Source: an uncultured delta proteobacterium | GTDB taxonomy: Bacteria; Myxococcota_A; Polyangia; Polyangiales; Polyangiaceae | Reading direction: 5' to 3' | Assembly: GCA_963839305.1 (NCBI GenBank) | Contig: CAWIUL010000011.1 | Span: forward strand, 2,633,561-2,697,560 | DNA: 64,000 bases | Shown: positions 11,114-40,655 of the stretch, in pieces | How the letters are laid out: each line of letters opens with the position of its first letter | Numbering within the stretch: the stretch's first letter is position 1 | Position numbers and translations under genes: made by a program | The notes under the pieces: generated by a model | Seen by the model: the letters and a program-made list of their open reading frames with translations, nothing else | Database searches by the model: none | Told to the model about the DNA's origin: nothing

Positions 11114-11568
11114 GTTGCTTCGTGGGCGAGGAGCCACTTCTTTCGCGGGACGCCGCCCGCGTAACCGACGAGCGCGCCGCTCGAGCCGATGATGCGATGG
11201 CACGGGACGATGATCGCGATCGGGTTCTTGCCGTTCGCCGCGCCCACGGCGCGCGAGGCTGACGGGTTTTTGATCGCGCGCGCGATCTCGCCGTAGCTCG
11301 CGGTGCGCCCGAAGCCGATCGTGACGAGCGCCTTCCACACGCGCGCCTGGAACGGCGTGCCGCGCGGCGCGAGCCGAAGATCGAACCGCACGCGCTCGCC
11401 TGCGAAGTATTCATCGAGCTGCTTCGTCTCTTCGGTGAACGCTCGCGCGTCGCGTCTTCCGTCGATCGCGGGCACGAGCCCTTCGAGGTACGCGCCCGTG
11501 AGCGCGTCTTGGTCCTTGGTGAGGGTGATCGTCCCAACGGGGCTCGCGTATTCGAAGGACCAACTCAT
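11059..11568 (-). CDS. ogt: Methylated-DNA--protein-cysteine methyltransferase.
   Basis: Active site PCHRII, HTH-like helix ARAIKNP...AVGAANGKNP. ATG at 11566-11568 overlaps the TGA of ada/alkA. Confidence 0.9.
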   Translation of the reverse strand: MSWSFEYASPVGTITLTKDQDALTGAYLEGLVPAIDGRRDARAFTEETKQLDEYFAGERVRFDLRLAPRGTPFQARVWKALVTIGFGRTASYGEIARAIKNPSASRAVGAANGKNPIAIIVPCHRIIGSSGALVGYAGGVPRKKWLLAHEATHLRRYTEMIGTPSCVST

Positions 11569-13019: not shown

Positions 13020-13025
13020 CAGAAA

Positions 13026-14678: not shown

Positions 14679-14756
14679 TCCGAAGCGCTCGTTCGTCGAA
14701 ACAAGGCGCTGGCGTGGCCGAGCCGCAGGCGTATCCTCGATGTTCGGAGGTAGTCG

Positions 14757-15083
14757 ATGGAGGAACGCCGTCAATTTCGACGACTGCAAGTTCCCGTCTA
14801 CTGCCGCGCAGCCGGCATGGAGGTGATGACGCGTCGTCACCCGATCGACTTGAGCCTCGGCGGCGTTCGTATCTACAGCGATCAGCGCTTCGCCAAAGGC
14901 GAGCTTTTGACCCTCGAGCTCATGACCGTCGATGCCCCCGCGAGCACCTTCACCGCCGAGGTCATGTGGATCGAAGACCTCCCAGCTGGATCCCCCGCTC
15001 TGTACGATGTTGGCCTGAGATTCCGCAGCGTTGACCCCACCCAGGCCACCGCGCTGGAGCGGATGTTGGCGAAATCCGAGTAG
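14757..15083 (+). CDS. PilZ domain protein.
   Basis: PilZ c-di-GMP-binding motifs RRQFRR and DLSLGGVRIY. 108 aa. Confidence 0.8.
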   Translation: MEERRQFRRLQVPVYCRAAGMEVMTRRHPIDLSLGGVRIYSDQRFAKGELLTLELMTVDAPASTFTAEVMWIEDLPAGSPALYDVGLRFRSVDPTQATALERMLAKSE

Positions 15084-15177
15084 TTTCGACCACATCGCAC
15101 CCACGAAAACATTTCGGCACCTCGGAGTACAAGGTGGGATAGGTTGTCATGGGCTTTGCATCAGCCTCCCTACTAAG

Positions 15178-22742: not shown

Positions 22743-23159
22743 ATGTACGCCGCAGTCGGTTTCGACCTCGTCGACGTACGTGAGGTGCAAGACTCTATCG
22801 ATCGCTTCGGTGAGCGATACCTCACGCGCGTCTACACGCCAGCGGAGATTGAGTACGCGATGAGCGCGCCCGATCGCGCGACGGCAGCGCGCAGGCTGGG
22901 GGCGCGCTTCGCTGCCAAGGAAGCCACGATCAAAGCGCTCGGCGCGAGCGAGCGGGGCATTAGTCCTCGCGAGATCGAGGTCGCGAGGAGTGCTGACGGC
23001 GCGATCCGGATCATCTTGCACGGTCCGGCATTTGCTGCAGCTCGGGAAGTGGGTGCAACGGCGTTCGTCGTCAGTGTGTCGCATCAAGGCGATTTGGCGG
23101 GCGCAGTCGTAGTCATGGAGAAAAAGCCGACGAGTCGAATCAGGTGGAAGAAGAAATGA
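22743..23159 (+). CDS. 4'-phosphopantetheinyl transferase (AcpS-type).
   Basis: AVGFDLVDVREV...RF...EA..KA.G. AcpS-size (138 aa). Confidence 0.8.
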   Translation: MYAAVGFDLVDVREVQDSIDRFGERYLTRVYTPAEIEYAMSAPDRATAARRLGARFAAKEATIKALGASERGISPREIEVARSADGAIRIILHGPAFAAAREVGATAFVVSVSHQGDLAGAVVVMEKKPTSRIRWKKK

Positions 23160-23404
23160 ACGATCGCATTCGGACGATTTTGAAGGAACACGGACGCCTC
23201 GCTGTGGAAATATCGACACTCGCCGACGACGCGGACTTATACGAAGCGGGAATGACCTCGCACGCGAGCGTCAACGTGATGCTCGCCCTCGAAGGCGCGT
23301 TCGACGTGGAGTTCCCCGACCGCATGCTTCGGCGCGGCGTCTTCGAGAGCGTCGTGGCGATCGCCACCGCGCTGAACGAGCTCACCCAAGGGAAGGCATC
23401 ATGA
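23156..23404 (+). CDS. Acyl/aminoacyl carrier protein.
   Basis: About 82 aa with a four-helix pattern. Ser in DLYEAGMTSHASVNVMLALE. The ATG at 23156 overlaps the PPTase TGA. Confidence 0.75.
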   Translation: MNDRIRTILKEHGRLAVEISTLADDADLYEAGMTSHASVNVMLALEGAFDVEFPDRMLRRGVFESVVAIATALNELTQGKAS

Positions 23405-24561
23405 GCGAAACAGTCGAGCTGGTCGCGCGGATTGGCCGTGAGGTCGCCGCGCCGAACGCTGATTCAGTCGATCGAGAGGCCCGCTTTCCGACCGAAGCGA
23501 TCGACGCGCTGAAGAAGGCGAAGCTGATGAGCACGCTCGTGCCGCGCGCCCTCGGCGGTCACGGCACCGGGATGATCGAGCTCGCCGCGATGTGCGAGGC
23601 CCTCGGCCAGCACTGCGCGTCGACGGCGATGGTCTTCGCGATGCACCACATCCAAGTGGCGAGCATCCTCCGCCACGCGATGAAGCAGCCGTATTACGAG
23701 CGCTACGTCGCGGAGCTCGTCGAGAAGCAGCCGCTCATCGCGTCGGCGACGAGCGAGGTCGGCATCGGCGGCGAGATGCGGACGAGCCGCTGCGCCGTGG
23801 TCCGCGACGAGGACGCGCGGTTCAAGCTCGACAAGGACTGCTCGACGATCTCGTACGGCGCCCAGGCCGACGACATCTTGTTCCAGGCTCGGCGCGGGCC
23901 GGACTCGCCGCCGAACGATCAGATCTTCGTCCTCGTGCGAAAGCCCGAGTGCACGCTCACGCAGAAGGGCAACTGGGACACGCTCGGCATGCGCGGGACG
24001 TGCAGCCCGCCGTTCATGCTCGAATCGAGCGGCGAGGTCGGTCAGATCTTCGACACGCCGTTCTCCGACGTCGCGAGCGAGACGCAGGTGCCGTTCAGCC
24101 ACGTGCTCTGGTCGAACGTGTGGCTCGGGATCGCCACGGCCGCCGTCGGCCGGGCGCGCGCGTTCGTGAGGCAGCAAGCGCGCGCGAAGCCCGGCACCGT
24201 GCCGCCCACCGCGCTCCGCCTCGCGGAGGCCTCGAGCATGCTCCAGACGATGCGCACCAACGTGCACGACGTCGCGAGCGAGTGCGACCGCTTGATGCAC
24301 GACGACAAAGAGGGCACCGCCGCGCTCTCGTCGATCGGGTTCGCGCTCAAGATGAACAACCTGAAGGTGAGCTCGTCGCAGCTCGTCGTTCAGATCGTGA
24401 ACCATGCGCTCTCGATCTGCGGGATCATGGGCTACAAGAACGACTCGAAGGTGTCCGTCGGACGCCACCTGCGCGACGCGCACTCCGCCGCGCTCATGGT
24501 CGGAAATGACCGCATCTTCGCGACCAACGCGTCGATGCTCCTCGTTCTCAAAGACGATTGA
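23401..24561 (+). CDS. Acyl-CoA / acyl-ACP dehydrogenase family protein (FkbI-like).
   Basis: Full-length ACAD fold. ATGA overlap with the carrier-protein gene. Confidence 0.8.
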   Translation: MSETVELVARIGREVAAPNADSVDREARFPTEAIDALKKAKLMSTLVPRALGGHGTGMIELAAMCEALGQHCASTAMVFAMHHIQVASILRHAMKQPYYERYVAELVEKQPLIASATSEVGIGGEMRTSRCAVVRDEDARFKLDKDCSTISYGAQADDILFQARRGPDSPPNDQIFVLVRKPECTLTQKGNWDTLGMRGTCSPPFMLESSGEVGQIFDTPFSDVASETQVPFSHVLWSNVWLGIATAAVGRARAFVRQQARAKPGTVPPTALRLAEASSMLQTMRTNVHDVASECDRLMHDDKEGTAALSSIGFALKMNNLKVSSSQLVVQIVNHALSICGIMGYKNDSKVSVGRHLRDAHSAALMVGNDRIFATNASMLLVLKDD

Positions 24562-24569
24562 GGCAAACC

Positions 24570-25475
24570 ATGTCGTACTCGCCGCAGGAGCTCTACGAAG
24601 GGCTCGTCTCGAACAGGTTGATCATCCCCGTCGGCGTGCAGGGCATCTTCGGGCGCGGCCCGGTGTTCGAGGAAGTCCTCGCGCGGTTCGACGACTACGT
24701 CTCGCGCGTCGCGAAGGACGACGGCGCGGAGAAGATGATGTTCCCGCCCACGCTCGACCGAAGGGTGTTCGAGAAGGTCGAGTACATGGACTCGTTCCCG
24801 CATTTGTCGGGCGTGATCTTCTCGTTCAAGGGGACCGAGCGTCAGGCGCTCGAGCTCGGCGCGAAGATCCACGCGGGCGAAAACTGGGACGGGCTCATGG
24901 CGTCGACGGAGTGCGTGCTCACGCCGGCCGCTTGTTATCCGGTCTATCCGAGCTTCGCGGGGACGGTGCCCGAGCAAGGTCGGCTCGTCGACATGCAAAA
25001 CTGGGTGTTCCGTCACGAGCCCTCGCCCGAGCCGACGCGCATGCAGGCGTTCCGCGTTCGCGAGTTCGTCCGCGTGGGAACGCCCGACGTGGTCCTCGCG
25101 TGGCGCGACATGTGGCTCGAGCGCGGGCTTCAAATCATGAAGTCGCTCGGGCTGCCCGCGAAGAGCGACGTCGCGAGCGATCCGTTCTTCGGCCGCGGCG
25201 GCAAGATGCTCGCTGCGAACCAGAAGAACGCGCGGCTCAAGTTCGAGGTGCTCGTGCCCGTCATCTCCGAGGAGAACCCGACGGCGCTCTGCTCGTTCAA
25301 CTGGCACCAAGAGCACTTCGGTCAGGTGTTCGACATCAAGACGACGGACGGCGCCGTCGCCAACACCGCGTGCCTCGGCTTCGGCATGGAGCGCGTGTGC
25401 ATGGCGCTCTTCAAGCACCACGGGTTCGATCCCGCGAAGTGGCCAGCCGAGGTGCGCGCGAAGCTCTGGCCATGA
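24570..25475 (+). CDS. Amino acid--[carrier protein] ligase: truncated class-II aaRS (atypical SerRS-like) catalytic core.
   Basis: Class II motif 2 (FRVREFVRVGT) and motif 3 (GFGMERVCMALF). Cys residues (ACYPVYP) resemble the Zn site of methanogen-type SerRS. No tRNA-binding domain. About 300 aa. Adjacent to the carrier protein and the PPTase. RBS GAGG upstream of the ATG at 24570. The track ORF begins with TTG at 24558. Confidence 0.7.
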   Translation: MSYSPQELYEGLVSNRLIIPVGVQGIFGRGPVFEEVLARFDDYVSRVAKDDGAEKMMFPPTLDRRVFEKVEYMDSFPHLSGVIFSFKGTERQALELGAKIHAGENWDGLMASTECVLTPAACYPVYPSFAGTVPEQGRLVDMQNWVFRHEPSPEPTRMQAFRVREFVRVGTPDVVLAWRDMWLERGLQIMKSLGLPAKSDVASDPFFGRGGKMLAANQKNARLKFEVLVPVISEENPTALCSFNWHQEHFGQVFDIKTTDGAVANTACLGFGMERVCMALFKHHGFDPAKWPAEVRAKLWP

Positions 25476-26461
25476 GCGCCATCGTCCACGCCCTGCCGCG
25501 CATCGACGCGTCCACGTACGCGCCCCACGAGCTCCATCGCGGCGAGCGCGCCTGGGGCGAGTCGAACTGTTACATCGACGTGTGGATCGAGGTGCTGAAC
25601 GCGCTCGGGTGCGATCCGCACGCGTGCCTCTCGTTCGTGACGAGCCTCGACTGGGAGGGCGATCAGTTCACGTTCTTCAAGCCGCCGCACGAGGATCTCT
25701 ACGAGCTCTACGGCGTCGACATCCAGGAGCTCACGATCTACAGGCCGCTCGTCGAGAACGCGATCGAGCAGCTGAAACAGGGCAAAATCGTGCTCTCCGA
25801 GATCGACGCGTACTACCTGCCGGACACCGCGGGCACGGACTATCGCGCGCAGCACACGAAGACGACGATCGGGATCCAGGAGATCGATCTCGAGGCGCGC
25901 ACGCTCGGGTACTTCCACAACTCGAGCTACCACGTGCTCGAAGGCGCGGACTTCGTCGGGCTCTTTCGGCTCGACGCGGCGCCTGACCCGACCTTCATGC
26001 CGTTCTTCGCCGAGCTCGTGCGGACGAAGCGCGTCGTGCGCCACGAGCCGCGCGCGCTCGTCTCGCGCTCGGTCGCGCTCTTGAAGAAGCACCTCGCGCG
26101 GAGGCCCGACCAAAACCCGATCCCGCGCTTCGCGGAGACGTTCAAGGCAGACATCGAGCGCCTCAAAAGCGAGGGGCTCGCCGCGTATCACCTCTACGCG
26201 TTCGCCACGATTCGCCAGCTCGGCGCGGCGTTCGAGTTCGCCGCGCTCTACCTCCGCTGGCTCGAGCGAAACGGCGAGGGCGATCTCGAGCCCAGCGCGC
26301 TCGCGTTCGACGCGATCTCGAGCGTGTCCAAATCGCTCGTGTTGAAGGCCGCGCGCGCCGTGGGCGCCAAGAAGGACGTGGACCTTTCGTCGATGCTGCA
26401 CGAGATCGAGTCGCAGTGGACGAGCGGGATGACGCACCTCGCGAAGCGGTACGGCGTGTGA
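25472..26461 (+). CDS. Conserved hypothetical protein (329 aa), co-transcribed with the aa:CP ligase.
   Basis: ATGA overlap with the ligase stop. No motif recognised. Confidence 0.6.
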   Translation: MSAIVHALPRIDASTYAPHELHRGERAWGESNCYIDVWIEVLNALGCDPHACLSFVTSLDWEGDQFTFFKPPHEDLYELYGVDIQELTIYRPLVENAIEQLKQGKIVLSEIDAYYLPDTAGTDYRAQHTKTTIGIQEIDLEARTLGYFHNSSYHVLEGADFVGLFRLDAAPDPTFMPFFAELVRTKRVVRHEPRALVSRSVALLKKHLARRPDQNPIPRFAETFKADIERLKSEGLAAYHLYAFATIRQLGAAFEFAALYLRWLERNGEGDLEPSALAFDAISSVSKSLVLKAARAVGAKKDVDLSSMLHEIESQWTSGMTHLAKRYGV

Positions 26462-26462
26462 G

Positions 26463-28857
26463 ATGAGGCTCGACGAGGGGTGGGAGATGGCGCTCGGAGC
26501 GCCCGTGGCTTGGAGACCGATCCCACGCGAGCGATTCGGCACCGTCGCGCGCGTCCTCGGAACGACCCTCGACGGCGACGTGACCGATTTCGACGCGACC
26601 GAGGTTTGGTATCGCAAGCGGCTCGCGCCCGGCGAGACGGGCGATCTCCTGAGGCTCGGCGGTCTCGCGACGCTCTGCGACGTGCGCGTCGACGGCGAAG
26701 AGGTGCTCCGCACGGACAACATGTTCGTGGAGCACGAGCTCACCGTCGCGCGACCCGCGCGAGATCGAGCTTCACTTTGCGCCGCTCGCGAAGGCGCTCG
26801 CCGAGCGTCGTCCGCGCCCGCGGTGGAGGGCGACGATCGTGGCGCAGCAGCAGCTCCGGTGGTTTCGCACGAGCCTGCTCGGGCGGATCCCGGCGTGGAC
26901 TCCGCCGATCGCGCCGGTGGGACCGTGGCGGCCCATCACGCTGGAAAGGGCGTCGCCCATCGCCGCGCACGACCTCAAGACGCGACTCGAAGGGCGCGAC
27001 GGCGTGGTCGAGGCCACGATCGCGCTGCGAGGCGACGTGAAGACCGTCGAGCTCGCCGTGGGCGAGCATCGCGCGACCCTCGAGGTCGACGGCGTCGCGC
27101 GCGGCACGCTGCGCGTCCCGAACGCGCCGCTCTGGTGGCCGCACACGCACGGTGCGCAGCCCCTCCTTCCGGTGCGCGCGCGGGTCGACGGAGCCGACTT
27201 CGAGCTCGGCGCGACCGGGTTTCGCAAGCTCGACGTCGATCAGCAGGGCGGCGCGTTCACGCTGCACGTCAACGGCGTTCGCGTCTTCGCGCGCGGCGCG
27301 TGCTGGACGCCGCTCGACCCGATCGGCCTCGGCGCCACGAAGGCCGAGCTCCGCGCTGCGCTGACGCAGGTGAAGCGCGCGGGGATGAACATGGTCCGCC
27401 TCTCGGGGACGATGGTCTACGAGTCGCGAGACTTCCACGAGCTGTGCGACGAGCTCGGGATCCTCGTCTGGCAGGACTTCATGTTCGCGAACATGGACTA
27501 TCCGATCGCGGACGAGCGCTTCGCCGCGTCCGTGCGCCGCGAAGCGACGCAGGCGATGTCGCGTCTTCAGCTCTCACCGAGCCTCGTCGTGTGCTGCGGC
27601 GGAAGCGAGGTCGAGCAGCAAGCGGCGATGATGGGGCTGCCCGAGAAGGACTGGTCGAGCCCGCTCTTCGCGGAGGTCTTGCCGGGGATCGTGCGCGAGG
27701 CGCGCCCCGACGTCGCGTACGTGCGCTCGACCCCCGCCTCGCATTTGGGGGGCGGCGTCCTGCCTTTTCACGTCGATCGCGGCGTGTCGCATTATTACGG
27801 CGTCGGCGCGTACCTTCGCGATTTCGACGACGCGCGGCGCGCGCGCGTGCGCTTCACGTCCGAGTGCCTCGCGTTCGCGAACGTGCCGCGCGACGAGACT
27901 ATCGAGGCGCTCATGCGCGACGGTGAGTCGCCTCCGAACCACCCGCGCTGGAAGAGCCGCGTGCCGCGCGACCGCGGCACGCCGTGGGACTTCGACGACG
28001 TGCGCGATCACTACGTGAAGGAGATCTTCGGCGTCGATCCACGCGCGCTCCTCTTCGGCGACGGCGCGCGGTACCTCGAGCTCGGGCGCGTCGCGACGGG
28101 CGAGGCGATGGCCGCGGCCATGAGCGAATGGCGTCGCGCGGGGTCCGAGTGCGCGGGCGCGCTCGTGTGGTTCCTGCGCGATCTGTGGGACGGCGCGGGT
28201 TGGGGCGTCATCGACGCGCGCGGCGCGCCCAAGGCGGCGTACCACCACTTGAAGCGCGTCCTCGCGCCCGTCGCGCTGCTCGCGATCGACGAAGGGCTCA
28301 ACGGGCTCGCGCTCCACGCGGTGAACGACGCGCCGAGCGCGATCGACGCGGAGCTCCGCGTCGCGCTTCATCGTGGCGAGGGGATCGTCGCCGAGGGCAC
28401 GCGCGCCGTCGCGCTCGGAGCGCACGACGCCATCGCCGTCTCCGCGGACGAGGTCATCGGCCGCTTCACGGACGTCACCTACGCGTATCGCTTCGGGCCG
28501 CGCGGTCACGACGCCACGCTCGCGACGCTTCGCGATCGCGCGAGCGGCGCGCTCCTCGGGCGCGCGTTTCATTTCCCGCGCGGCGCTCGCGCAGAGCGCG
28601 CGAGCGATCTCGGCCTCGAGGCACGCGCCGAACGCGTCGACGAGGGCTCGTGGAGGCTCACGGTGCGCACGAAGAAGGTCGCGTACGCGGTCGCCATCGA
28701 CGCGCGCGGATTCGTCGCCGACGACGACTTCTTCCACGTGGCGCCCGGCGACACTGGCGCGTTCTCGACCGTGCTCACGGGGCGAGGCGACACGATCTCG
28801 GGGACGGTTAAGGCGCTCAACGCCACGACGCCGACGAAGATCGTTTGCGCGCGTTGA
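26463..28857 (+). pseudogene. Glycoside hydrolase family 2 (beta-mannosidase-like), reading frame broken near 26750. Pseudogene or sequencing indel.
   Basis: The N-terminal sugar-binding domain is in frame 26463 (…TDNMFVEHELTVA). The rest is in the frame of ORF 26839..28857 (…REIELHFAPL…, GH2 TIM-barrel). The switch falls within about 26745-26760. Confidence 0.65.
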
Positions 28858-28888: not shown

Positions 28889-29698
28889 ATGACGGCAGTA
28901 CAAGACGCGCTGAATCGTTCGACGTGGTCGCAGCGCTCGTCGCGACGCTGGCTCGACTCGGTGCGCGACTTCACCGACCCTGGCGAGGAGGCGGCGCTCG
29001 CGGTCGTGCGCGAGCGCGCGCGCGGAAAGCCGATCCTCGACCTCGGCGTCGGCACGGGCCGAACGATACCGATGCTCGAGCCGCTCACGCACGATTACCG
29101 CGCGATCGACTATCTGGAGGGGATGGTCGACGCGTGCCGAGCGCGTCACCCGCGCGTCCGCGTCGAGCTCGGTGACGCTCGGGCGCTCGACGGCGTGCCT
29201 GACGCCCACTTCGGCCTCGTGAATTTCAGCTTCAACGGGATCGACGCGGTCGATCACGACGATCGCACGCGCGTGCTCGGCGAAATGCGGCGCGTCGTTC
29301 GCCGCGACGGATACGTCCTGTTCTCGACGTTGAACCTGGACGGCCCCGCGTTCCGCGAGCGGCCTTGGACGCCGCGCGCTGCGACCCAGTGCAGCCTGCC
29401 CCGCGCGGCCGCGCGCACCGCCATCGCGCTCGCGAGCGTGCCCTTCGACGTCGCGCGGTGGATGCGCATTCGTCCTGGCGCGCATCGCGGCGACGGTTGG
29501 GCGATCGCGCCGCTCAGCGCGCACCACTACGGCGTGCTCGCGCACTTCACGACACTGGAGCGCGCGCTCGAGGAGCTCGCGAGCGCGCGACTCGATCGGG
29601 ACGTCGTCGTCCTCGAGAACACGCGAGGGGCTCACGTGAAGCCTGGCGACGACACGAGCGACGCGGACTGGTTCCACTTCGTCGCGCGCCCGGCCTAG
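28889..29698 (+). CDS. Class I SAM-dependent methyltransferase.
   Basis: Motif I ILDLGVGTGR, plus post-I and motif II regions. Confidence 0.8.
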   Translation: MTAVQDALNRSTWSQRSSRRWLDSVRDFTDPGEEAALAVVRERARGKPILDLGVGTGRTIPMLEPLTHDYRAIDYLEGMVDACRARHPRVRVELGDARALDGVPDAHFGLVNFSFNGIDAVDHDDRTRVLGEMRRVVRRDGYVLFSTLNLDGPAFRERPWTPRAATQCSLPRAAARTAIALASVPFDVARWMRIRPGAHRGDGWAIAPLSAHHYGVLAHFTTLERALEELASARLDRDVVVLENTRGAHVKPGDDTSDADWFHFVARPA

Positions 29699-29701: not shown

Positions 29702-30163
29702 CTAAGGCAGGTCGGTGACGAACGTCGCCGGGTTTCCCGCGACGAGCGTGTTCGGCGCGACGTCCGCCGCGACGACCGAGCCCGCGGAGACCACGCAGCC
29801 GCGACCGAGACGAACGCTGGGCAGGACGATCGCGCCGAGGCCGATCCATACGACGATCGCGTTGCCGATGATCGCAGGCGACATGCGCCGCGCGGACGGG
29901 CCGAGCGCGTGCGTGCCCGTGTGGAGCGTCACGCGAGGACCGATCGACGCGCCGCGGCCGATCGTGATGCGCTCGTCGAGCCCGAACGTGACGTCGGGGC
30001 CGATCGTGACGTCCGGGCCGATGCGGAGGTTCTTGATGGCGCCGCGAGGACCGATCAAATAGACGTCGCCGAGGACCGCGGCGCCGCGGCGAACGTCGCA
30101 ACCCGCGAAGCGGAGTAGCTGCGCGCGGACTCCGGGGAACGTGAAGTCCGGGAGCATGCGCAT
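29702..30163 (-). CDS. Hexapeptide-repeat (LbH) sugar O-acetyltransferase (maltose/galactoside acetyltransferase-like).
   Basis: Tandem [LIV]-G-x-x-x-x hexapeptides: IGPDVTIGPDVTFG...IGRGASIGPRVTL...IGNAIVVWIGLGAIVLPSVRLGRGCVV. Confidence 0.85.
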   Translation of the reverse strand: MRMLPDFTFPGVRAQLLRFAGCDVRRGAAVLGDVYLIGPRGAIKNLRIGPDVTIGPDVTFGLDERITIGRGASIGPRVTLHTGTHALGPSARRMSPAIIGNAIVVWIGLGAIVLPSVRLGRGCVVSAGSVVAADVAPNTLVAGNPATFVTDLP

Positions 30164-30326
30164 CGCGAGCTTCGCACCGAGTCGGGAGCGTCGACGACGA
30201 GCGTCGCCCCGCGCGCTTCGCGCATGACGCGCGCGAGCCTCCCGCGAGGCTGCTCGGACGCGTCCTCGGCGGTCGTGGACGCGGGCGATTCGAAGGTCGC
30301 AACGAGCGGCTTGGCGAGCGGGCTGG

Positions 30327-30974
30327 TCACGGTGGCGATTCTCCTCGAGCGAACGCGGCGAGTGAATCGAAAGTCCGCGGGCGCGCGAACAGGTCGTGCG
30401 GGAAGCTCACGCCGAGCTCCTTCTCGAGCGCGACGAGCACTCGAAGCGCGGCGAGCGAGTCGAAGCCGCGCGCTCTCCGCACGTCGCTCGCGTCGTCGAG
30501 CTCCGCGGCGGCCGCGACGATGCGGCAGACCACGTCGCGCACGCGCTCGCGGGTCGCGTCCTTCGCCGGCGCGCCGTTCGCCTTCTGGGCGTGGGGCATC
30601 TCGCCGGTGCCGGTCACCACCGCCCCATCAGCGATCCACGCGTTGTCGGCGATCGAGAGGTCGCCCGCGATCTCGTCGTCGACGATGCACCCGACGCCGA
30701 TGCGCGCGCCGCGACCGACGACGACGCGACCGCGCGCGCGGATCACGGCGCCGCTCTCGATGAGCGCGTCTTCGCCGATCTCGAGCTACGCGCCCGGGCG
30801 TACGACGATCGTGATCGGCGCGGGCGTCGACACGAGCACCGCGCGCGCCCCCACGACGAGCGCTCCCTCCACTGCGACGCTCGGCATCCCCAGCACCCGA
30901 ACGCCCGAGCCCACGCGAGCGCCGAGCGTGAAGCGCGCGCGCGCGGCGTCCAAGCGCCCGGCCACGGCACGCAC
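30327..30974 (-). pseudogene. Hexapeptide-repeat acyltransferase fused to a C-terminal acyl carrier protein, interrupted by an in-frame TAG at 30786-30788.
   Basis: ORFs 30786..31103 and 30327..30746 share a frame. Hexapeptide repeats continue across the TAG. The C-terminal 80 aa are a canonical ACP (GFDSLAALRVLVALEKELG). Probable GTG start at 30974. Confidence 0.6.
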
Positions 30975-30988
30975 GAGCTTGCGTCGGA

Positions 30989-32524
30989 TCAAGCGAGCCC
31001 CTCGACGGTCACGAGCGAGCGCGCCCCGGGCATTTCGCCGAGGTCCACGCGCCACGCCTCGCCGTCTCGCGCGAGCCGCGCGCGCGCGAAGAAATCGACG
31101 CACGGCTTGTTCTTCTTCGTCGGGATCGGCTCGACCGAGAGAGAGAGCGCGCGCTGAGCGCCTTCGCGCGCGACACCGCCGCCCAGAGGATCGTCTCCTC
31201 GACTCGGCGCCCCATCACGCGGCAGCTCAAGAGGTAATCCTCCAGCGTCGCGCGATCGCCCTCGCGCGAGACGCCGAAGAGGCCCGTCAACCCTGCGTCG
31301 CCGAAGCGGTCGGAGACGTGCGCCGCCCAGACCTCGTGGCCAGGAGCGGCGGCCCACGCGAGGAGCTCGCTCTCGCTCATGCGGCGCGTGCGGAGGTTCA
31401 TCTGGTTCGTCTTGTTGAGGAGCTGCGCGGCGCGCGCGACGTTGCCCTTCGCGACGCGCTCGAAGCGAACGACGAGACCGAGCGTCGCGAGCCAGTCGTC
31501 GATCGACGTCGACACGCTGCGTAGCGCGGTCCGCTGGCGCTCGGTCGCGTACATCGCGTTGCGCTCGAGGTCCTCCTTGCTCACGTGCGGCGTGTCGAAG
31601 CAGCGAAGCGACTCCAGCGCGCGGCCGTAGTGCGTCGGGTCGAGCGCCCACTCCGGCACGTAGACCTCGGGCAACGCCTCGCTGACGCGGCCGCGTTCGA
31701 CGGGGTTGTCGTCGATGAACACGACCGACTGAAGGCCGAGGTTCAGCTCCGTCGCGATCTCGACGATGTTACGCGCCTTGTCGCTCCAGTTGATGCGATA
31801 CGAGGCCAGCATCTCCGGCCGGATGATCATCTCCGGGCGCCCAGACGAACGCGAGATCGACTTTCGAATCGCGCGAGCCGAGCCCGATGAGCGTGGGGAT
31901 CACGTGGTCGAACGGCGCGACCTCGGCCTCGATGGAGAGGCCGTCGAAGTCGATGTCCGCGAGCTTGTGGGCGAGCTCGTCGATCGTGAAGTCGGCGGCG
32001 AGCACTGCGCGGACGCGCGTCATCGTGGGCGCGCCTCGCACGGTTTGTGCAGCGAAAGGGGCGTGTTTGGCCGGCGCGCGTTGCTCGGAGGGGACGGTGG
32101 ATCCGGGTGGCACTACTGCGCCCCGTGGCACGACGCAGCCCGCGACGATTCGCGCGCCCGCGCCGATGCGTACGCCCGCTTCGATCGTGATCGCCGAGGA
32201 GACGCCGTCCGCGCCGCGGTCGCATATCGTCACGTTGGGGCCAATGATCACGTCCTGGTGCACGCGCACCTCAGAGTCCGAGAAGATGGCGACGCCGGGC
32301 TCGATCGTGACGCGCTCACCGATCGTGATCGTTCCCGCGTTGGTGGTCGCGAGGCGAACCGGCGAGGCGCTCGAGTGGATCGTGACCTCGTCTCCGATCT
32401 CGATGCGGCCCTCGTTGCGAACGAGCGGGCGGCCCGAGACGCGAACGTCGCGTCCGACGCTGTCGCAATCGTCCAGGCGCAGCATCGCGGAGAGGCCACG
32501 AAGCATCATGAGCGGTGCGATCAT
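30989..32524 (-). pseudogene. LbH (hexapeptide) domain fused to an FkbH-like (HAD-IIIC) domain, with two apparent frameshifts.
   Basis: LbH repeats run from the ATG at 32524 (ITIGERVTIEPGVAIF...). The FkbH-like N-terminus (IDFDGLSIEAEV...SKVDLAFVWA) is in the frame of ORF 31769..32932. The central part (RINWSDKARNIVEIATELNLGLQSVVFIDDNPVERGRV) is in the frame of ORF 31009..31830. The C-terminus (VEPIPTKKNKPCVDFFARA) is in the frame of ORF 30989..31651. Shifts fall near 31835 and 31140. Confidence 0.55.
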
Positions 32525-32566
32525 CGAGCGTTCGACGTCAGAGCACGGAGCATGCCGTGTCCTGTG

Positions 32567-34356
32567 GTACTCTGCCGGGTCGCCCTGTGAGCACTGCGCA
32601 CGCGTTTTGGTTCGGGCCGAAAGGACGGCGTGCGTTCGGTTGGTTTCATCCACCGGTGGGGAAGGCGCGCGCTCTGGGCGTCGTCTTGTGTCCGCCGCTC
32701 GGTCACGAAATGTTGTGCACGCATCGCGCTTATCGTCACCTCGCCGAAGGTCTGGCCGAGCTCGGATTTCCGGTTCTGCGCTTCGATTACCACGGGACAG
32801 GCGATTCGCCAGGGGGCGATCGTGACGAGGATCGCGTCGGCGCGTGGCTCGGGACGATCGACGACGCGATCGAAACGCTGAGGCAGACGGGGATCGCGCG
32901 CGTGGCGCTCTTCGGCATGCGCGTCGGCGCAACCTTCGCCGCTGCGGCCGCCGCGCGACGCGGCGGGGTCGACGAGCTCGTGATGGTCGCGCCGTGCGTC
33001 TCTGGCGGCACGTTCCTCCGCGAGCTCCGCGCGTTGCACAAGCTCCGCGAGCGCGGCGAGGCGAGGCCGCCCTTCCACGGACAGCGCGAGGGCGACGAGG
33101 AGGCGATCGGCTTCGTATTCCGGCGCGAGACGATCGAGGCGCTCGCGAAGGTGGACTTTCGCACGCTCGCCACGAAGCCCGCGGCGCGCGCGATGATCGT
33201 GCCGCGCGACGACATGCCTGGCGGGGAGACGCGCATCGCGGACCGCCTCCGCACGCTCGGCGTCGACGTCGAGGTCGTTTCGGCGCCGGGCTACGCGACC
33301 GCGGCGAGCGACGATCCGTACGTCGCCGAGGTGCCCACGGAGATCTGGCGCGCCGTGACGGCCTGGCTCGAGCGCGCGAACCCGGAGAGAGACATCACTC
33401 ACGCGAGCCCGGAGGGCGACAAGGTCGAGCCGATCGACTCGCGCGTCGTCGAGTCCGCGATCCGCTTCGGCGAAAACGACCGGTTCTTCGGCGTCCTCAG
33501 CGAGCCCATCGGATCGCGCAGCGAACTCGCGGTCATCGTTCCAAACACGGGCGCGAACTCGCGCGTCGGGACGAACCGCTTCAACGTCGCGCTCGCGCGT
33601 CGCCTCGCTTCGCGCGGGCACGCGGTCCTTCGCATGGATCTCGGGGGAATCGGCGACAGCGCACCGCACGACGGCGCGCGAGAAAACGACCTGTTCGCGG
33701 ATCGGTCGATCGCCGACGTGCGCGCCGCGATCGACGCCACCGCCGCGCGCGGATACCGCCACTTCGTCACGATGGGTCTCTGCGCCGGCGCGTACATGTC
33801 CTTCCACACGGGCCTCACGGATCCGCGCGTCGCGGGGATGGTTCTGATGAACCCGCCCGCGTTCGAGTGGACGCCGGGGCGCAAGGTCGAGCGCATCGTG
33901 ACGCGGCCACACGGCAACGTGCGTTCGATGCGCTACTACCGAAATCGCGCGCTCCGGCTCGACACGTGGCGTCGGCTCGCGCGCGGCGAGGTCCAAGCCG
34001 GCGCGATCGGTCGCGTGCTCGCGGCGCGCGCGAGAGGTCGCGCCGCGACGGCGGTGAAGCGCGCGGCGATCATCCTCGGTCGTCCCGAGTGGGTGATGAG
34101 CGATCTCGCGCAGAAATTCACGGCCCTCGTGCTGCGCCGCACCCGCGTGCTCTTGTTGTTCAACGACGAGGAGGCGATGCTCGACGAGCTCGACAAACAC
34201 CTCGGCGGCCTCATGGTTTGGCTGACGAAGCGCGGCGTCGAGCTCGAGACCATCGACAACACCGATCACATCTTCGCGCCCGTGTGGTCGCAGGAACGCG
34301 CCTCGGACGTCCTCACGGACTTCATCGATCGGGTGGCGAGGGAGAAATCGCGATGA
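32567..34356 (+). CDS. Tandem alpha/beta-hydrolase fold protein (two hydrolase domains).
   Basis: Two repeats of an alpha/beta-hydrolase core, with nucleophile-elbow-like GMRVGAT and GLCAGAY. A GTG start at 32567 with GGAG upstream was chosen over the longer ORF, which overlaps the divergent gene. Confidence 0.6.
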
Positions 34357-35645: not shown

Positions 35646-37136
35646 ATGATCGACGAGCACAAGGCACGAAGACGGCACGAGACGCAGCTCGCCATGCGCA
35701 ACATGGCGATCGTGGGCACTTCGCTGGTCGCCACGTGGAGCGTCGCGCTGCTCGTGCGGCTCGTCCTCCCGCGCCGGCTCGGACCGGCGATCTTTGGGCA
35801 ATACAGCTTCGCTGAGGCGCTCGCCATCAACGGCTTCGCGTTCCTCGGGCTCGGCGTCGACATGTACATCCAGAAGGAAATCCCGCGCAGGCCGGAGCAC
35901 GCGTCGGACTTCTTCGGCGGGACGCAACTCATTCGCGTGGCCGGCAGCGTCGTCATACTCGCCGTGCTGGCGCTCACGGCGCGGCGCGCAGGCTACGGCG
36001 CGGAGGTCGTCGGCACCACGCTTGCTTTTGGCGTTGCACAGCTGTGCGTACTGCTCGCCAACACGTGCGCCACGCTGCTCTACGCGGCCCGGCGCGTCGG
36101 CAGGCTCTCGGCGCTGAACATCGCGACGAAGGTCGTCTGGGCGGCCGGCGTGAGCCTCGCGCTCGTGCGCCGCGCGAGCTTGTGGACCTACGCGGCGGTC
36201 GCGGTGCTGAGCGAGGCGATTCGGCTGGTCGTGCTCTATCGCCTCAGTCAGACCGTGGCGGACGTGCGCGTGCGCATCGAGCCGCGCCAGACGTTCACCG
36301 TCCTCAGGCGGAGCGCGCCGTTCTGGGTGAACCAGGTCGCGATCGTCCTCTACTCGAAGATCGACGTGGCGATCATGGGCATGCTCGTGACCGATCGCGA
36401 GCTTGGGTTCTACGGCGCCGCGACGAACATCTCGAGCGTCGCGATGCTGATGTCGCCGTTCGTGGGATGGGTGCTGACGCCGCAGCTCGCGCGCGTGGTG
36501 GACGATCGCGTGGAGTTCGTGTCGCTGCTCCGGCGCTCGTTCGAGTGGACGCTGGCGCTGGCCATCCCGATCGCGATGATCCTCGGGCTCGGCGCGGACG
36601 TGATCGTCCACGGGGTCTTCGGCGCGAAGTTCGACCCCGCGATCGGCGCGATGCGAATGCTGATGCCGATCTTCGTCGTCGTCTACGTCGCGATGCTCGG
36701 CGCGACGGCGATGATCCTGCTCGATCGATCGTGGACGGTGACGATCGTCACGCTGCTCTCGCTCGTCGCGAATGCATTGCTCAACCTGATCGTCGTGCGC
36801 CCGGCTTGGCACGCGCTCGGCGAGGGCGGCGCGGGCGTCGGCGCGGCCGCGATCTCGGTGAGCACGGAGGCGGTGGTCGCGGTGACGTACATCTGGTACC
36901 TGCGCCGCGAGATCCTCGACGCGCGAAACGTCACGTCGGCCTTGAAATCGCTGGCGGCGTGCGCCGTCGTCGTGGCGTTCCACGTGCTCAGCCCCGACCT
37001 GCGCGCTTGGCGCCTGCCGATCGATGTGGTGCTCTACAGCGCGCTCGTCGTCGGGACGCGAGCCGTGCGAGTCTCGGAGCTTGTCGCGCTCGTACGAACC
37101 ACGTTAACTCGGAGAGGAAGTCATGCGAATTCGTGA
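35646..37136 (+). CDS. wzx: Wzx-type oligosaccharide flippase (polysaccharide biosynthesis protein, MOP superfamily).
   Basis: About 14 TM helices in the Polysacc_synt family pattern. The start may be the internal ATG at 35694. Confidence 0.8.
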   Translation: MIDEHKARRRHETQLAMRNMAIVGTSLVATWSVALLVRLVLPRRLGPAIFGQYSFAEALAINGFAFLGLGVDMYIQKEIPRRPEHASDFFGGTQLIRVAGSVVILAVLALTARRAGYGAEVVGTTLAFGVAQLCVLLANTCATLLYAARRVGRLSALNIATKVVWAAGVSLALVRRASLWTYAAVAVLSEAIRLVVLYRLSQTVADVRVRIEPRQTFTVLRRSAPFWVNQVAIVLYSKIDVAIMGMLVTDRELGFYGAATNISSVAMLMSPFVGWVLTPQLARVVDDRVEFVSLLRRSFEWTLALAIPIAMILGLGADVIVHGVFGAKFDPAIGAMRMLMPIFVVVYVAMLGATAMILLDRSWTVTIVTLLSLVANALLNLIVVRPAWHALGEGGAGVGAAAISVSTEAVVAVTYIWYLRREILDARNVTSALKSLAACAVVVAFHVLSPDLRAWRLPIDVVLYSALVVGTRAVRVSELVALVRTTLTRRGSHANS

Positions 37137-37710
37137 GCTGATCCTCGTGTGTGCGCTCGGTGCGGGCGCATGCGGCCCCTCGGGGTCGTACGTCTGGGTG
37201 AAAGACCTTCCGCCAACCGGCGATTTCTCGACGGACTACCTCATCGCCACTGGCGACGTGATCAGTGTGCGTGTGATCAATCAAGATTCGATGAGCACAC
37301 GCGCGCGCGTCCGCAACGACGGCCGCGTGGCGCTCCCGCTCGTCGGTGACGTCGAGGTCCGCGGGAAGAAACCGGCGTCGGTGCGCCTCGAGCTCGAGGC
37401 GCGCCTCAAGGAGTACCTCGTTGCGCCGAGTGTCACCGTGAACGTCGAGGAGGTGGCACCCGTGACGGTGAGCGTTCTCGGCGAGGTCACGCACCCGGGC
37501 GTCGTGCAGATGGACGGCTCGGGCGGCGTCGCGCAGGCGCTCGCGTCCGCGGGCGGCCTCACCGACTACGCGTACCGCGATCGCATCTTCGTCGTACGCT
37601 CCGGTGGCAAGCCTTCGCGCGTGCGCTTCACGTTCGACGAGCTCGCGGGCGGCGATTCGGCTGCGTCGCGCTTCACGCTGCGACGCGGAGACGTCGTCGT
37701 CGTCGAGTGA
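37123..37710 (+). CDS. Short outer-membrane polysaccharide export (OPX/Wza-like) lipoprotein lacking the C-terminal OM-spanning helix.
   Basis: Lipobox LGAGAC. Poly_export (PES) motif PLVGDVEVRGK with SLBB-like regions. Only 195 aa. Confidence 0.8.
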   Translation: MRIRELILVCALGAGACGPSGSYVWVKDLPPTGDFSTDYLIATGDVISVRVINQDSMSTRARVRNDGRVALPLVGDVEVRGKKPASVRLELEARLKEYLVAPSVTVNVEEVAPVTVSVLGEVTHPGVVQMDGSGGVAQALASAGGLTDYAYRDRIFVVRSGGKPSRVRFTFDELAGGDSAASRFTLRRGDVVVVE

Positions 37711-37790: not shown

Positions 37791-39263
37791 TCAGCCGTGG
37801 GCAAGTTCATCGTCTTCAGCATCCTCGGCGCGACGGTCATCATTCCCCTCATTTATGCGCGCGAGGGGCGTCGTACCAAGCGAGGGCTTCGGAGGACCCT
37901 CGTCGCCTTCGGCGTGTACTGCGCGCTCTGGGTCCTCGCCACGCTCTTCATCGCTCCCCGCCTTTGAGGGCTTCGCCTCGGGCCACGCGCCGCTGAGGAC
38001 TGGCACGCGGATCGCGACGCCGATCGAGACCGCCATGAGCACGTCCGGCGAGAGCGTGACCCAGCCCATGTCGCCCCACATCTGCAGGATGAACGTCGTG
38101 ATCGTCGTCAGCCCCAAGATCGCCGCGACGCGCACCGTGCCCGACCGCGAGGCGCGCACGGATATCAAGAGGAAGAACGACGCGACGACGAAGAGCTGCC
38201 AGCACAGCCAGAAGCCAAGGATCCCGCTGAACGCGAGGAGCCCGAGCACGCTGTTGTGCGGGATGAACCGGTACTGCGGGAAGACCTCCTTGATGCTGAG
38301 CGCGACGGACTGCTCGTCGTACTCGTGGCCCCACCCCGTTCCGAGGAGCGGGTTCGTGCGCAGCGTCTGGACGAGGTTGTAGTTCTCGATGTCGCGCATC
38401 TCGCTCGACGTGTCCTGGTGCGTGCCGAACATCGTCGAGATCGAGCCGACGGGCTTGAACACCCCCTCGGTGCGGCCCCAGCCGACCGCGACGTAGAACG
38501 CGAAGAGCGGGACCGCGCCGATCATGAGCCAGTTCATGCGCCGCTTGAAGCGCGTCCGCGGGAGTACGTAGTAGAAGAGCGCGAGGCCGACCATCAGGCT
38601 CAGCCACGCGAGGCGCCGGTTGTTCCACTTGATCGCGAGCGCCAGCGGGACGCACGCGGCGATCATCCACAAGAACGAGGTGAGCCTACGACGCTCGATC
38701 GCGTTGGCGATCACGACGAGCATGCCCGTGACGAAGAGCGCGCTGTCGGCGTGCGTCGTCATCACCTGCAGCGGCGGGTCCAGCCCACGCGCGACGGTCA
38801 AGTAGAAGACGATGAGCACGAGCGCGCGATAGACCGCGGCGAAGAGCACCACCTTGCCGAGCGCCGCGATGTGCTTCGCCGTGCGGCACGTCGCCGCGAC
38901 GGCGAACGCGAGCGCGAGCGACATGACGAAGCTGTGGAGCTGCCACATCGTTTGCCGCACGTCGCCGCCCCGGATGACGCCCCAGATCCAGAAGCCCGCG
39001 ATCGAGAGCAGGGCGACCTTCGCCGACTTGACCACGGGCTTCGCGCGGTCCTTCGACGCGCCCTTCGCGCCAAGCGCGACGAAGAGCGTGATGAGGAGCG
39101 CGATGTCCCAGAGTGGGAATTTGATGCCCGGGAGCGGCTTGAAGATCGCCGTGCCGATCGTCGTGAGCGGCGTCTCCCACTTGCCCGAGAAGGTGTCGCC
39201 CTCGATCTCCGCCGTGAGGGCCAGCCAGGCGAGCAGGAGTGTGAAGCGTCGGGCCACGATCAA
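37791..39263 (-). CDS. wzy: Wzy-type polysaccharide polymerase / O-antigen ligase family membrane protein.
   Basis: About 11 TM helices with a large periplasmic loop, in the Wzy_C family pattern. Acidic C-terminal tail. Confidence 0.8.
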   Translation of the reverse strand: MIVARRFTLLLAWLALTAEIEGDTFSGKWETPLTTIGTAIFKPLPGIKFPLWDIALLITLFVALGAKGASKDRAKPVVKSAKVALLSIAGFWIWGVIRGGDVRQTMWQLHSFVMSLALAFAVAATCRTAKHIAALGKVVLFAAVYRALVLIVFYLTVARGLDPPLQVMTTHADSALFVTGMLVVIANAIERRRLTSFLWMIAACVPLALAIKWNNRRLAWLSLMVGLALFYYVLPRTRFKRRMNWLMIGAVPLFAFYVAVGWGRTEGVFKPVGSISTMFGTHQDTSSEMRDIENYNLVQTLRTNPLLGTGWGHEYDEQSVALSIKEVFPQYRFIPHNSVLGLLAFSGILGFWLCWQLFVVASFFLLISVRASRSGTVRVAAILGLTTITTFILQMWGDMGWVTLSPDVLMAVSIGVAIRVPVLSGAWPEAKPSKAGSDEERGEDPERAVHAEGDEGPPKPSLGTTPLARINEGNDDRRAEDAEDDELAHG

Positions 39264-39266
39264 TCC

Positions 39267-40655
39267 TCAGAGAACAAACCTGGGTTCGTGCCAAACGAAC
39301 GTGAGGAACAGGTTCGCCGACCAGAACTCTCCGGTGAAGGGGTCATGCTGCCAAGCGCCGCGGAGGCCGAGGCCCGCTTCGATGCGCTTGTCGAGCCTGC
39401 GCAGGACCTCGGCCTCCCCCGTGACGTACGTCGCGTCGAGCGACGAGCCCCAAAGGCTGCGCACGAACGCGACGTCGCCCCTGAGCGAGTGCCTCTCGTC
39501 GATGCGCTTGAGCGCGGCGGCGCCGACCTCGAGTCGCGGGTCGATGATGCCATAGTGCATGTCCACGACCGGGCCGACGCGCGTGTAGACGTACGCCGCG
39601 GGTCGCGGCAGGGTCATCGGATGGAGGGCAGGACGATCGGCCTGCGCGTTCTGAAGCGTGTACGTGAGGATCGCGCCGAAGACCGGGTATGGCACGACGC
39701 GGTACGGTTGCGCGGGGTTGCCGTCTTTGAACGTGAGCGTGTCGATTGACGACGACGGGTAATAGATTCGTTGCGAGCGGTCGTCCGTGTCGTTGACGGT
39801 CACCCGCGCGAGCGTCGCGCCGCCGACGAGATCGATCATGATTCGCCTCGCGATGGCGTGACTCCACACCTCGCGCACGCCCACCCACTGGCCGCTCGGC
39901 GCGCACAGCGGAGGATTCGGGGTGGTGAGGTTGAGCTGCGGCCCTCCGGTCGCCGGATCGCACGGGCGTTGCGTCGAATCCGCGGCCGTTGCATCGCCCT
40001 GCGTGACGAGGGTGTCGCGGCGCGTGACGCGTTGCGCGACGGTGAGGTCGACGTGCGGAACCGACACGAGGGGTACGAGCGCGCGCGAGGGTTCGTCGAG
40101 GCCACCGTTCAGGCTGTAGCTGGCCGAGATCGAGAACGTCGTCTTGCGGTGGGTGTAGTGCAGCATCGCGCTCGTGGACGACGAGCCGTACGTCACGGTC
40201 TCGCTGGCGCAGTGAGCCAGGTCGGTGCAGGGAAGGAGCTGCACGGGCGGTGGGCCGCCCAGCACCTGTCCCGGCGCGATGGCGTACGGCGTGAGGAACG
40301 AGAAGTTCATCTGCCCGAACGAGGCGCCTTCCGACGCGCTGATGCCCCAGTGGCGAGACGCGTACGAGGCCGACGTCTCCGCATACTGGAAGAGCAGCGG
40401 CGCTTGCGGCGTGGTGAAGAGCATCTCGAGATCGGGCTCGGTGATCTGCGCCGCGTAGCTGAACCTGAAGTCGAACTGGCGCGACTTCGTCTCGAAGTGC
40501 GCGTAGGGCGACGTCATCAGATCGAGCCCGGCAGTCGGCACCTGCGCGCCCGTCGCCGAGATCGTCGGGGTCAAGCGCAGGCGAAGCTCGTTGACCGCGC
40601 CGATGTCGATCGTGGAGAGGAGACCGCTCGCGACGAGGACGATGCTGCCCAGCAT
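39267..40655 (-). CDS. Predicted outer-membrane beta-barrel protein, probable partner of the short OPX.
   Basis: Alternating amphipathic beta-strand pattern, with aromatic residues at the C-terminus (…HEPRFVL). Gene context between wzy and the glycoside hydrolase. Confidence 0.55.
   Translation of the reverse strand: MLGSIVLVASGLLSTIDIGAVNELRLRLTPTISATGAQVPTAGLDLMTSPYAHFETKSRQFDFRFSYAAQITEPDLEMLFTTPQAPLLFQYAETSASYASRHWGISASEGASFGQMNFSFLTPYAIAPGQVLGGPPPVQLLPCTDLAHCASETVTYGSSSTSAMLHYTHRKTTFSISASYSLNGGLDEPSRALVPLVSVPHVDLTVAQRVTRRDTLVTQGDATAADSTQRPCDPATGGPQLNLTTPNPPLCAPSGQWVGVREVWSHAIARRIMIDLVGGATLARVTVNDTDDRSQRIYYPSSSIDTLTFKDGNPAQPYRVVPYPVFGAILTYTLQNAQADRPALHPMTLPRPAAYVYTRVGPVVDMHYGIIDPRLEVGAAALKRIDERHSLRGDVAFVRSLWGSSLDATYVTGEAEVLRRLDKRIEAGLGLRGAWQHDPFTGEFWSANLFLTFVWHEPRFVL

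Follow-up and report, generated by a model that had tools for sequence, protein, structure and literature searches.

A probable, recently inactivated remnant of a conserved LbH-FkbH/LbH-ACP operon in an exopolysaccharide cluster of a Polyangiaceae-like bacterium

We analyzed a 64,000-nucleotide (nt) stretch of DNA from an uncultured delta proteobacterium (contig CAWIUL010000011.1, positions 2,633,561 to 2,697,560; hereafter the window), which has a G+C content of approximately 69%, and in particular three consecutive minus-strand genes at window positions 29702 to 32524, which we call A, B, and C. These genes had been delimited in a reading made from the letters alone (the sequence-only reading), and the coordinates given there proved exact: gene A runs from the ATG at 32524 to a TGA (30991-30989) that shares bases with the TTG start codon of gene B (30992-30990), the TGA that ends gene B (30329-30327) is likewise overlapped by gene C, whose start codon is GTG (30330-30328), and gene C stops at 29704-29702. 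We found intact A/B/C sets with 4-nt overlaps in three related loci, L001, L002, and L003, so we interpret A, B, and C as a single translationally coupled operon in which A and B are separate genes. An arrangement of A and B as one fused gene was considered and rejected, since the TGA/TTG overlap corresponds to the 4-nt overlaps of these three loci. As described below, all three genes are damaged in the window, and the region probably represents what is left of a conserved operon of three genes, inactivated recently, within an exopolysaccharide cluster of the Wzx/Wzy type in a Polyangiaceae-like bacterium.

Gene A (30989..32524, minus strand) reads as a pseudogene for a protein with a left-handed beta-helix (LbH) domain and an FkbH-like loader (HAD-IIIC plus GNAT-fold), as seen from Hexapep and TIGR01686 matches, tblastn, and alignment. 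No lesion was seen in its N-terminal LbH domain (32075..32524); Pfam Hexapep matches residues 112 to 144 (4.5e-10, 39.2 bits against a cut-off of 27), the LbH part is recovered as a single tblastn piece (32482-31841) with L001 and L002, and the assignment agrees with the structure model of the intact homolog P0013. In this model (predicted local distance difference test score [pLDDT], 86.7), a beta-helix (residues 12 to 130) is accompanied by an alpha/beta N-domain plus HAD phosphatase, a helical insert, and a GNAT-fold domain with an invariant Cys. The gene A beta-helix has no conserved His. In the FkbH part, TIGR01686 scores well above its cut-off (4.4e-62, 210 bits against 146.65) but covers profile positions 68 to 316 of 323 only, leaving positions 1 to 67 unmatched; intact P0013 reaches 292 bits over positions 2 to 318.

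The missing profile region coincides with a large deletion. The three reading-frame pieces of gene A sum to approximately 511 amino acids (aa), compared with 700 to 800 aa in homologs, and tblastn with intact orthologs recovers pieces corresponding to aa 10-214, 428-651, and 644-707, in two frames with one of them recurring, while aa 214-428 of the L001 ortholog have no match in the window. In the alignment of gene A with eight intact homologs, a gap of approximately 205 columns separates ...DLAFVWAP from EMIIRPEML..., and the deletion junction reads GTCTGG GCGCCCGGAG ATGATC (31831..31840). Approximately 213 codons (about 640 nt) are gone, comprising the remaining N-domain, HAD motif I (VVVDLDDTLWGG; DLDDT, with the nucleophile Asp), and motif II (SKNEE), so that the DxDxT signature of motif I is absent from gene A and SKN of motif II was deleted along with it. 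The frame shifts at this junction, across which the sequence is GTCTGGGCGCCCGGAGATGATC; CCCGGAG stands at the junction, and a 7-nt microhomology with the HPEM site of the homologs can be deduced from the homolog codons. A relaxed search of the whole window did not find the missing FkbH segment, and its relocation within the window was rejected on this basis.

A second lesion in gene A is a +2 frameshift in a (TC)5 run (31137..31146), placed by alignment and by the frame change in tblastn, where pieces end at 31165 and begin at 31186 or 31144; a (TC)4 run would restore ALSARSLSVEPIPTKKNKPC, in agreement with ALGARSLVIEP in the homologs. With the out-of-frame deletion junction and the (TC)5 frameshift, gene A has no uninterrupted frame and reads in three frames. 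HAD motifs III and IV are kept (INWSDK and FIDDNP, the latter with two Asp codons at 31708..31713), and K250, D272, and D273 are invariant in the alignment. The Cys codon of LSCRVMGR in the GNAT-fold C-domain (31222..31224) is also retained; this Cys, which we take to be the acyl-enzyme site of characterized FkbH enzymes (OzmB/FkbH), is invariant in the 9 aligned sequences and in a set of 37. Across these 37 intact homologs, D362, D364, T366, S413, K414, N415, and C632 are all invariant. The sequence-only reading had proposed an LbH-FkbH fusion, to be given up if the FkbH-like domain lacked the HAD catalytic Asp. The domains and their fusion in a single gene stand, as relatives encode both in one open reading frame (ORF) of 700 to 800 aa, but the catalytic core has been deleted here, and with the motif I segment and its catalytic Asp lost, the reading is refuted for the window copy by its own test.

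Gene B (30327..30992, minus strand) is the stop-interrupted remnant of a gene for a short LbH domain joined to an acyl carrier protein (ACP), as identified by a PP-binding match and by full-length alignment to the L001, L002, and L003 orthologs of 206 to 226 aa. The PP-binding match (PF00550; 7.4e-8, 33 bits against a gathering score of 20.8) covers residues 186 to 251 of the 258-aa query and includes the Ser codon of the phosphopantetheine attachment motif GFDSLAAL (30456..30458), in which D178, S179, and L180 are invariant. An in-frame TAG at codon 69 (30786..30788), where orthologs have Ser or His, truncates the gene after codon 68; the window reads GCG TAG CTC where L003 reads GGC CAC CTC, and the source assembly annotates only the 139-aa tail of gene B (P0125). 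Pfam Hexapep gave no match in the N-terminal part of the window gene. Homologs of gene B carry PF00132, and a profile of the gene A beta-helix matches the N-terminal part of B at 1e-11 to 1e-30. The AlphaFold model of P0121, an intact protein with 83% identity (pLDDT 83.8), consists of a helix, a beta-helix (residues 32 to 128), a disordered linker, and a four-helix ACP, with fold matches to ACPs (TMt ~0.77) and to the beta-helices of gamma-carbonic anhydrase, CcmN, and serine acetyltransferase. Foldseek returned weak E-values only for this two-domain model, and it was used solely to confirm each fold separately. The LbH-ACP fusion with a DSL-type ACP that had been described here is therefore a sound description of the architecture, which intact relatives encode in a single ORF of 206 to 260 aa, but the window copy is cut by the TAG.

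Gene C (29702..30330, minus strand) is the remnant of a gene for a WcaF-like LbH O-acyltransferase, frameshifted near codon 49, as indicated by Hexapep and WcaF matches, alignments, and the G+C content at third codon positions (GC3). Hexapep scores 1e-10 (41.3 bits against a cut-off of 27), and the best family match is to WcaF at 3.4e-16, with 59 bits lying far below the family cut-off of 192 bits. The GC3 frame switches at approximately 30200, and a -1 frameshift is located at 30184..30186, where the window has GACGCTCC-CGAC and L003 has GACGCGCCGCGCC (DNA alignment column 983); the repaired protein reads VVDARRLGAKLAMRMLPDF, as in the orthologs. A 12-nt in-frame deletion (junction at 29854..29855; DNA alignment columns 1314 to 1325) takes out four residues (HIEE/EEGA) that form a beta-helix turn directly before the conserved WIG. 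The His-containing loop HTGTHALGP is kept. The 153-aa ORF at 29702-30163, previously read as a stand-alone acetyltransferase, does carry the Hexapep/WcaF domain but is not an intact gene; it is the part of gene C downstream of the frameshift, and orthologs are 186 to 192 aa long. We could confirm hexapeptide/LbH domains in all three genes, directly by Hexapep in A and C and through homologs, the profile, and the model in B.

The operon therefore carries at least five lesions of four kinds within 2.8 kb, more than the frameshifts and stop to which the sequence-only reading referred, with each of genes A, B, and C affected. The TAG, the -1 frameshift, and the 12-nt deletion are visible in the DNA alignment with the 89%-identical relative L003 and also in protein alignments. 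When L001 orthologs were compared with the window by tblastn, only A and C were split, with B aligning across its TAG, and each of 17 flanking genes (19.5 to 42.7 kb) was recovered as one full-length piece. Ten further window genes have complete Pfam domain matches or none, the complete ones including Bac_transf (1-178/179), RNase E/G (1-270/270), Pkinase, and ABC_tran. Since the flanking genes are unbroken, the damage is restricted to the A/B/C operon, and we consider real, recent pseudogenization to be the best reading. The chance that five random lesions over 23.2 kb all fall in 2.8 kb is (2.8/23.2)^5, or approximately 3e-5, and five clustered lesions against none in approximately 20 kb of flanking coding sequence are unlike random error. 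If the lesions are real, several measures support a recent inactivation: GC3 is still approximately 0.9 in the correct frames, the ratio of nonsynonymous to synonymous substitution rates (dN/dS) relative to L003 is 0.21 for B and 0.23 for C, and Tajima-type relative-rate tests found no consistent excess of amino-acid change on the window branch.

These same measures are also what would be expected if the lesions were assembly or sequencing artifacts and the organism had an intact, working LbH-FkbH/LbH-ACP/acetyltransferase operon, since codon usage and dN/dS remain coding-like and the lack of raised amino-acid substitution fits very recent decay but equally an artifact. Other observations likewise weigh against decay. 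The source is one long contig, probably from a metagenome-derived assembly, and the identical database proteins (P0125, P0156, and P0157, which are the 139-aa and 273-aa fragments and the methyltransferase described below) come only from that same 3.65-Mb contig, so there is no independent copy of the lesions. A 33-nt pattern across the deletion junction had no match in JGI metagenomes, and a metagenome protein scan gave a closest relative of 71% identity and no near-identical one. Both small frameshifts lie in short repeats, a C run and the (TC)5 run, of the kind that is error-prone in long-read assemblies. In two other loci from long-read metagenome-assembled genomes (L029, 5126-6870; L035, 5228-6837), we also observed FkbH-like genes split into two or three overlapping ORFs, which could be either frameshift errors or further pseudogenes. 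An artifact would, on the other hand, have to account for two deletions, of approximately 640 and 12 nt, as well as a nonsense substitution and a pair of frameshifts, all in 2.8 kb next to at least 17 neighbors that are lesion-free over approximately 20 kb. The loss of 640 nt with only 7 nt of microhomology is atypical of consensus error, and the C-to-A change that gives the TAG is not a homopolymer error. On balance, we regard an artifact as improbable and real pseudogenization of the operon as likely.

A different way to retain function would be for the fragments to act as split or truncated genes, the candidates being the free LbH of gene A, a 273-aa piece with the HAD tail and GNAT domain, the 139-aa ACP ORF, and the 153-aa acetyltransferase ORF from the ATG at 30163. 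Every piece is an open frame with a possible start codon, the ACP domain, the ACP Ser, and the gene A Cys motif are undamaged, and two of the pieces were annotated as proteins by the gene caller of the source assembly. However, HAD motifs I and II, both invariant across 37 homologs, are gone from the loader, and a comparable split arrangement occurs in 0 of 30 loci that we surveyed (see below). The 153-aa piece of gene C also lacks the first 55 or so residues and a four-residue turn of the beta-helix core, and gene C homologs are all 186 to 192 aa long. We therefore give very little credence to functional fragments. Under the preferred reading of a decayed operon, with gene A lacking the nucleophile Asp and spread over three frames, gene B cut by a TAG, and gene C frameshifted and missing a turn, the module cannot work as sequenced, and the polysaccharide made here should probably be without the corresponding decoration. 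One relative encodes a pair of LbH-FkbH paralogs, P0013 and P0109, on a single contig of 2,713,438 nt; by extension, an intact second copy might exist elsewhere in the source genome, beyond the window.

We found the operon to be a local version of a widespread cassette. With gene A as the query, 4431 proteins were recovered at E <= 1e-5. Among the top 120, most are 680 to 835 aa long and carry PF00132, and their annotation goes no further than "FkbH-like protein" or "HAD-IIIC family phosphatase." When 163 fetched loci were scanned with profiles built in this analysis, an FkbH-like gene with an N-terminal LbH domain was followed by a beta-helix gene as its next neighbor in every case (30 of 30 loci). 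A C-terminal ACP in this neighbor was recognized by a small-profile match in 21 of the 30 loci and by a WDSLG-type motif in the C-terminal helical region in 9, while FkbH-like genes without LbH had an LbH-ACP neighbor in 2 of 116 cases. The 30 loci are from Polyangiaceae, Anaeromyxobacteraceae, Labilithrix luteola DSM 27648, Gemmatimonadaceae, Ilumatobacteraceae, and Hyphomicrobium, a range of at least four phyla (Myxococcota, Gemmatimonadota, Actinomycetota, and Alphaproteobacteria). Both fusions had been called unusual domain architectures; their pairing in 30 of 30 loci instead makes them the normal, tightly linked form of one cassette and no oddity of the window.

The third gene, C, is specific to the window's clade (the window, L001-L003, L084, and L085). 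In 26 other lineages (L004-L012, L016, L020, and L086-L155), the ACP-fused beta-helix is long and has the conserved motifs SHL, D[TS]D[FY]H, and GVPAR. In the window's clade, this beta-helix is short and has none of the three motifs, and gene C aligns to exactly the part that is missing from it. Judging from these alignments, the presumed catalytic beta-helix seems to have become separated from the ACP in the window's clade.

LpxA and LpxD are LbH transferases that move acyl groups from an ACP thioester to a sugar, and a phosphatase and a Cys-linked intermediate are involved in loading by OzmB. By analogy with such systems, the ACP in intact relatives of the operon is probably charged with a glycerate-derived acyl group, which then passes to a sugar. 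The intact gene A product, with its N-terminal LbH, BF1531-like N-domain plus HAD-IIIC phosphatase, and GNAT-fold domain with the invariant Cys, would most likely take a glycerate-derived unit from 1,3-bisphosphoglycerate and dephosphorylate it, given its homology to FkbH and OzmB. FkbH-like enzymes of polyketide pathways load a glyceryl unit from 1,3-bisphosphoglycerate onto an ACP (PMC7489565). The gene A product would then hand the acyl group to the phosphopantetheine arm of the gene B ACP, from which a His-bearing LbH acyltransferase would move it to a repeat-unit sugar in an LpxA/LpxD-like manner. This transferase is predicted to be the ACP-fused LbH in most lineages and the separate gene C in the window's clade. 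Gene C corresponds in alignment to the presumed catalytic half of the ACP-fused LbH of other lineages, so its donor may be an acyl-ACP and not acetyl-CoA.

The His-less LbH of gene A and, in the window's clade, the short LbH of gene B are probably trimerizing or docking modules, which would join loader and carrier. The strict pairing of two paralogous beta-helices, one of them without a conserved His, suggests assembly of loader and carrier into a trimeric complex. Taken further, the cassette could be an undescribed carrier-protein-dependent machine that adds glycerate-type esters or amides to polysaccharides, with the paralogous beta-helices co-assembling as one trimer and the ACP-fused or split-off beta-helix serving as acyl-ACP:sugar transferase; we put this forward tentatively, as a possible and not as a likely model. 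A literature search on FkbH-like/HAD-IIIC proteins in polysaccharide, O-antigen, or gellan contexts gave passing mentions only, such as a cj1302 pseudogene in one Campylobacter jejuni strain. It found no characterized FkbH-like protein of a glycan locus, a point that weighs against the chemistry proposed for the intact cassette.

Compared with known systems, gene A resembles the FkbH/OzmB/Mad7-type loaders in having a HAD-IIIC core followed by a Cys-bearing acyl-transfer domain and in adjoining a dedicated ACP. It differs from them in lying in a Wzx/Wzy polysaccharide cluster with no polyketide synthase, FabH-like, or FkbK genes, in the extra N-terminal LbH and N-domain of approximately 190 aa that its family carries, and in the fusion of the ACP to an LbH; in addition, the window copy is a pseudogene without motifs I and II. 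The same N-domain and HAD are found in BF1531 of Bacteroides fragilis (PDB 3slr, an uncharacterized fragment; phmmer 1.2e-39, Foldseek TMt 0.79), and FkbH-like proteins of approximately 560 to 600 aa, such as C. jejuni cj1302, are widespread in polysaccharide and glycosylation loci. Neither 3slr nor these glycan-locus proteins have an N-terminal LbH, and an LbH-ACP neighbor is usually lacking, as in 100 of 116 loci. LpxA and LpxD give weak profile matches to the LbH domains of the cassette, with a likeness at the fold level only; unlike in those enzymes, the cassette ACP is covalently fused to the LbH, the acyl group is probably a short hydroxy acid, and the use of acyl-ACP is an inference. 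Gene C has the size of WcaF/WcaB/HpsU-type O-acetyltransferases and their conserved His loop HTGTHALGP but, in the window, is frameshifted and has an internal deletion. The best LbH matches of the short gene B LbH are to scaffolds of the CcmM/CcmN and gamma-carbonic-anhydrase-like type (CcmN and gamma-carbonic anhydrase, at marginal E-values); this again is a fold-level likeness only, with no relation to carboxysomes. Together with the missing D[TS]D[FY]H motif, these matches fit a structural or docking role.

The Wzx/Wzy-type exopolysaccharide locus around the operon is mostly colinear with L001, a syntenic 2.7-Mb contig of a Polyangiaceae-like organism with the same cluster. In the window, its ORFs lie at 15019-16548, 35646-37136, and 37123-37686 on the plus strand and at 37944-39257, 39276-40655, and 40663-42699 on the minus strand, and the cluster contents are a Bac_transf priming transferase, a flippase, Poly_export, a Wzy_C polymerase, an EpsX-family protein, and GH44. 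The L001 cluster contains GH44, EpsX, Wzy, Poly_export, the flippase, GNAT, an alpha/beta hydrolase, the A/B/C trio, a methyltransferase, DUF1839, a 302-aa protein, an acyl-CoA-dehydrogenase-like (ACAD) protein, a carrier protein, a phosphopantetheinyl transferase (PPTase), and glycosyltransferases. A promoter and terminator scan of 29.4 to 32.9 kb gave no signal above background.

Upstream of the operon, the ACAD protein of the window is part of an intact five-gene cassette on the plus strand (22752-26455), which is syntenic in L001 and L007. The cassette encodes a PPTase (22752-23129), a PRK07081-type carrier protein (23156-23401), the ACAD protein (23413-24558), an amino acid--[acyl-carrier-protein] ligase that is seryl-tRNA-synthetase-like (24570-25469; PRK07080, 6.7e-123), and DUF1839 (25466-26455). 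An S-adenosylmethionine (SAM)-dependent methyltransferase of the Methyltransf_11/25 type (28889-29698) adjoins gene C. In the sequence-only reading, the dehydrogenase was linked to the operon as FkbI-like, and the whole was compared to methoxymalonyl/hydroxymalonyl-ACP logic. In favor of an intact module that belongs to a pathway of this type, an FkbH-like loader, an ACP, an ACAD protein, and a SAM methyltransferase all lie inside 9 kb, and L001 has the same neighbors. Against it, the ACAD protein belongs to a different conserved cassette, together with a PPTase, a carrier protein of its own, a ligase, and DUF1839; in the survey, this cassette lay close to just 2 of 30 LbH-FkbH loci, and the methyltransferase likewise accompanied just 2 of 30. 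Moreover, the genes examined in the window, L001, and L002 included neither an FkbK-type 3-hydroxyacyl-CoA dehydrogenase nor an FkbG-type O-methyltransferase, and the Methyltransf_11/25 type differs from the FkbG type. The ACAD gene in its own cassette, the missing FkbK-type gene, and the methyltransferase type leave the analogy unsupported, and we consider a malonyl-type pathway highly improbable. The ACAD cassette suggests aminoacyl decoration of the polysaccharide by a carrier-protein route; a literature search on amino-acid:carrier-protein ligases gave nothing directly useful. Of the two carrier-protein modules in the window, which are independent of each other, one is intact and the other is dead.

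We made a number of additional observations in the neighborhood. A 613-aa protein with two alpha/beta-hydrolase domains is encoded at 32515-34356 (plus strand), where the L001 ortholog has one domain (297 aa); the region in which this protein may start directly adjoins the gene A start, so that the two genes have a very short divergent intergenic region in common. Between DUF1839 and the methyltransferase lies a 672-aa ORF (26839-28857, plus strand) with coding-like GC3 and no Pfam match at 1e-3, which is not at the corresponding L001 position and in whose place L002 has a GH5 cellulase. Farther away, a complete Ada/AlkA-type fusion (Ada Zn-binding, AraC helix-turn-helix, AlkA_N, and HhH-GPD; 11568-13025, minus strand) comes after a 706-aa ORF (13029-15146) in the same frame, which has no Pfam match.

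For the organism, these findings mean that the module in the window is a decayed copy, which it would be wrong to list as a functioning tailoring pathway, and that the 139-aa and 273-aa proteins annotated in the source assembly are fragments. For the family, they mean that LbH-FkbH and LbH-ACP genes always come as a pair, across several phyla and also in a cultured organism with an intact cassette, Labilithrix luteola DSM 27648 (NZ_CP012333, about 6.84 Mb). In intact relatives, the conserved cassette would be a sensible subject for biochemical study. If the trimeric-machine model is true, the window would be a natural knockout, and the decoration would be dispensable in at least one lineage. 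If the chemistry proposed for the intact cassette is true, it would open a genetic route to studying how bacterial polysaccharides acquire glycerate-type acyl groups.

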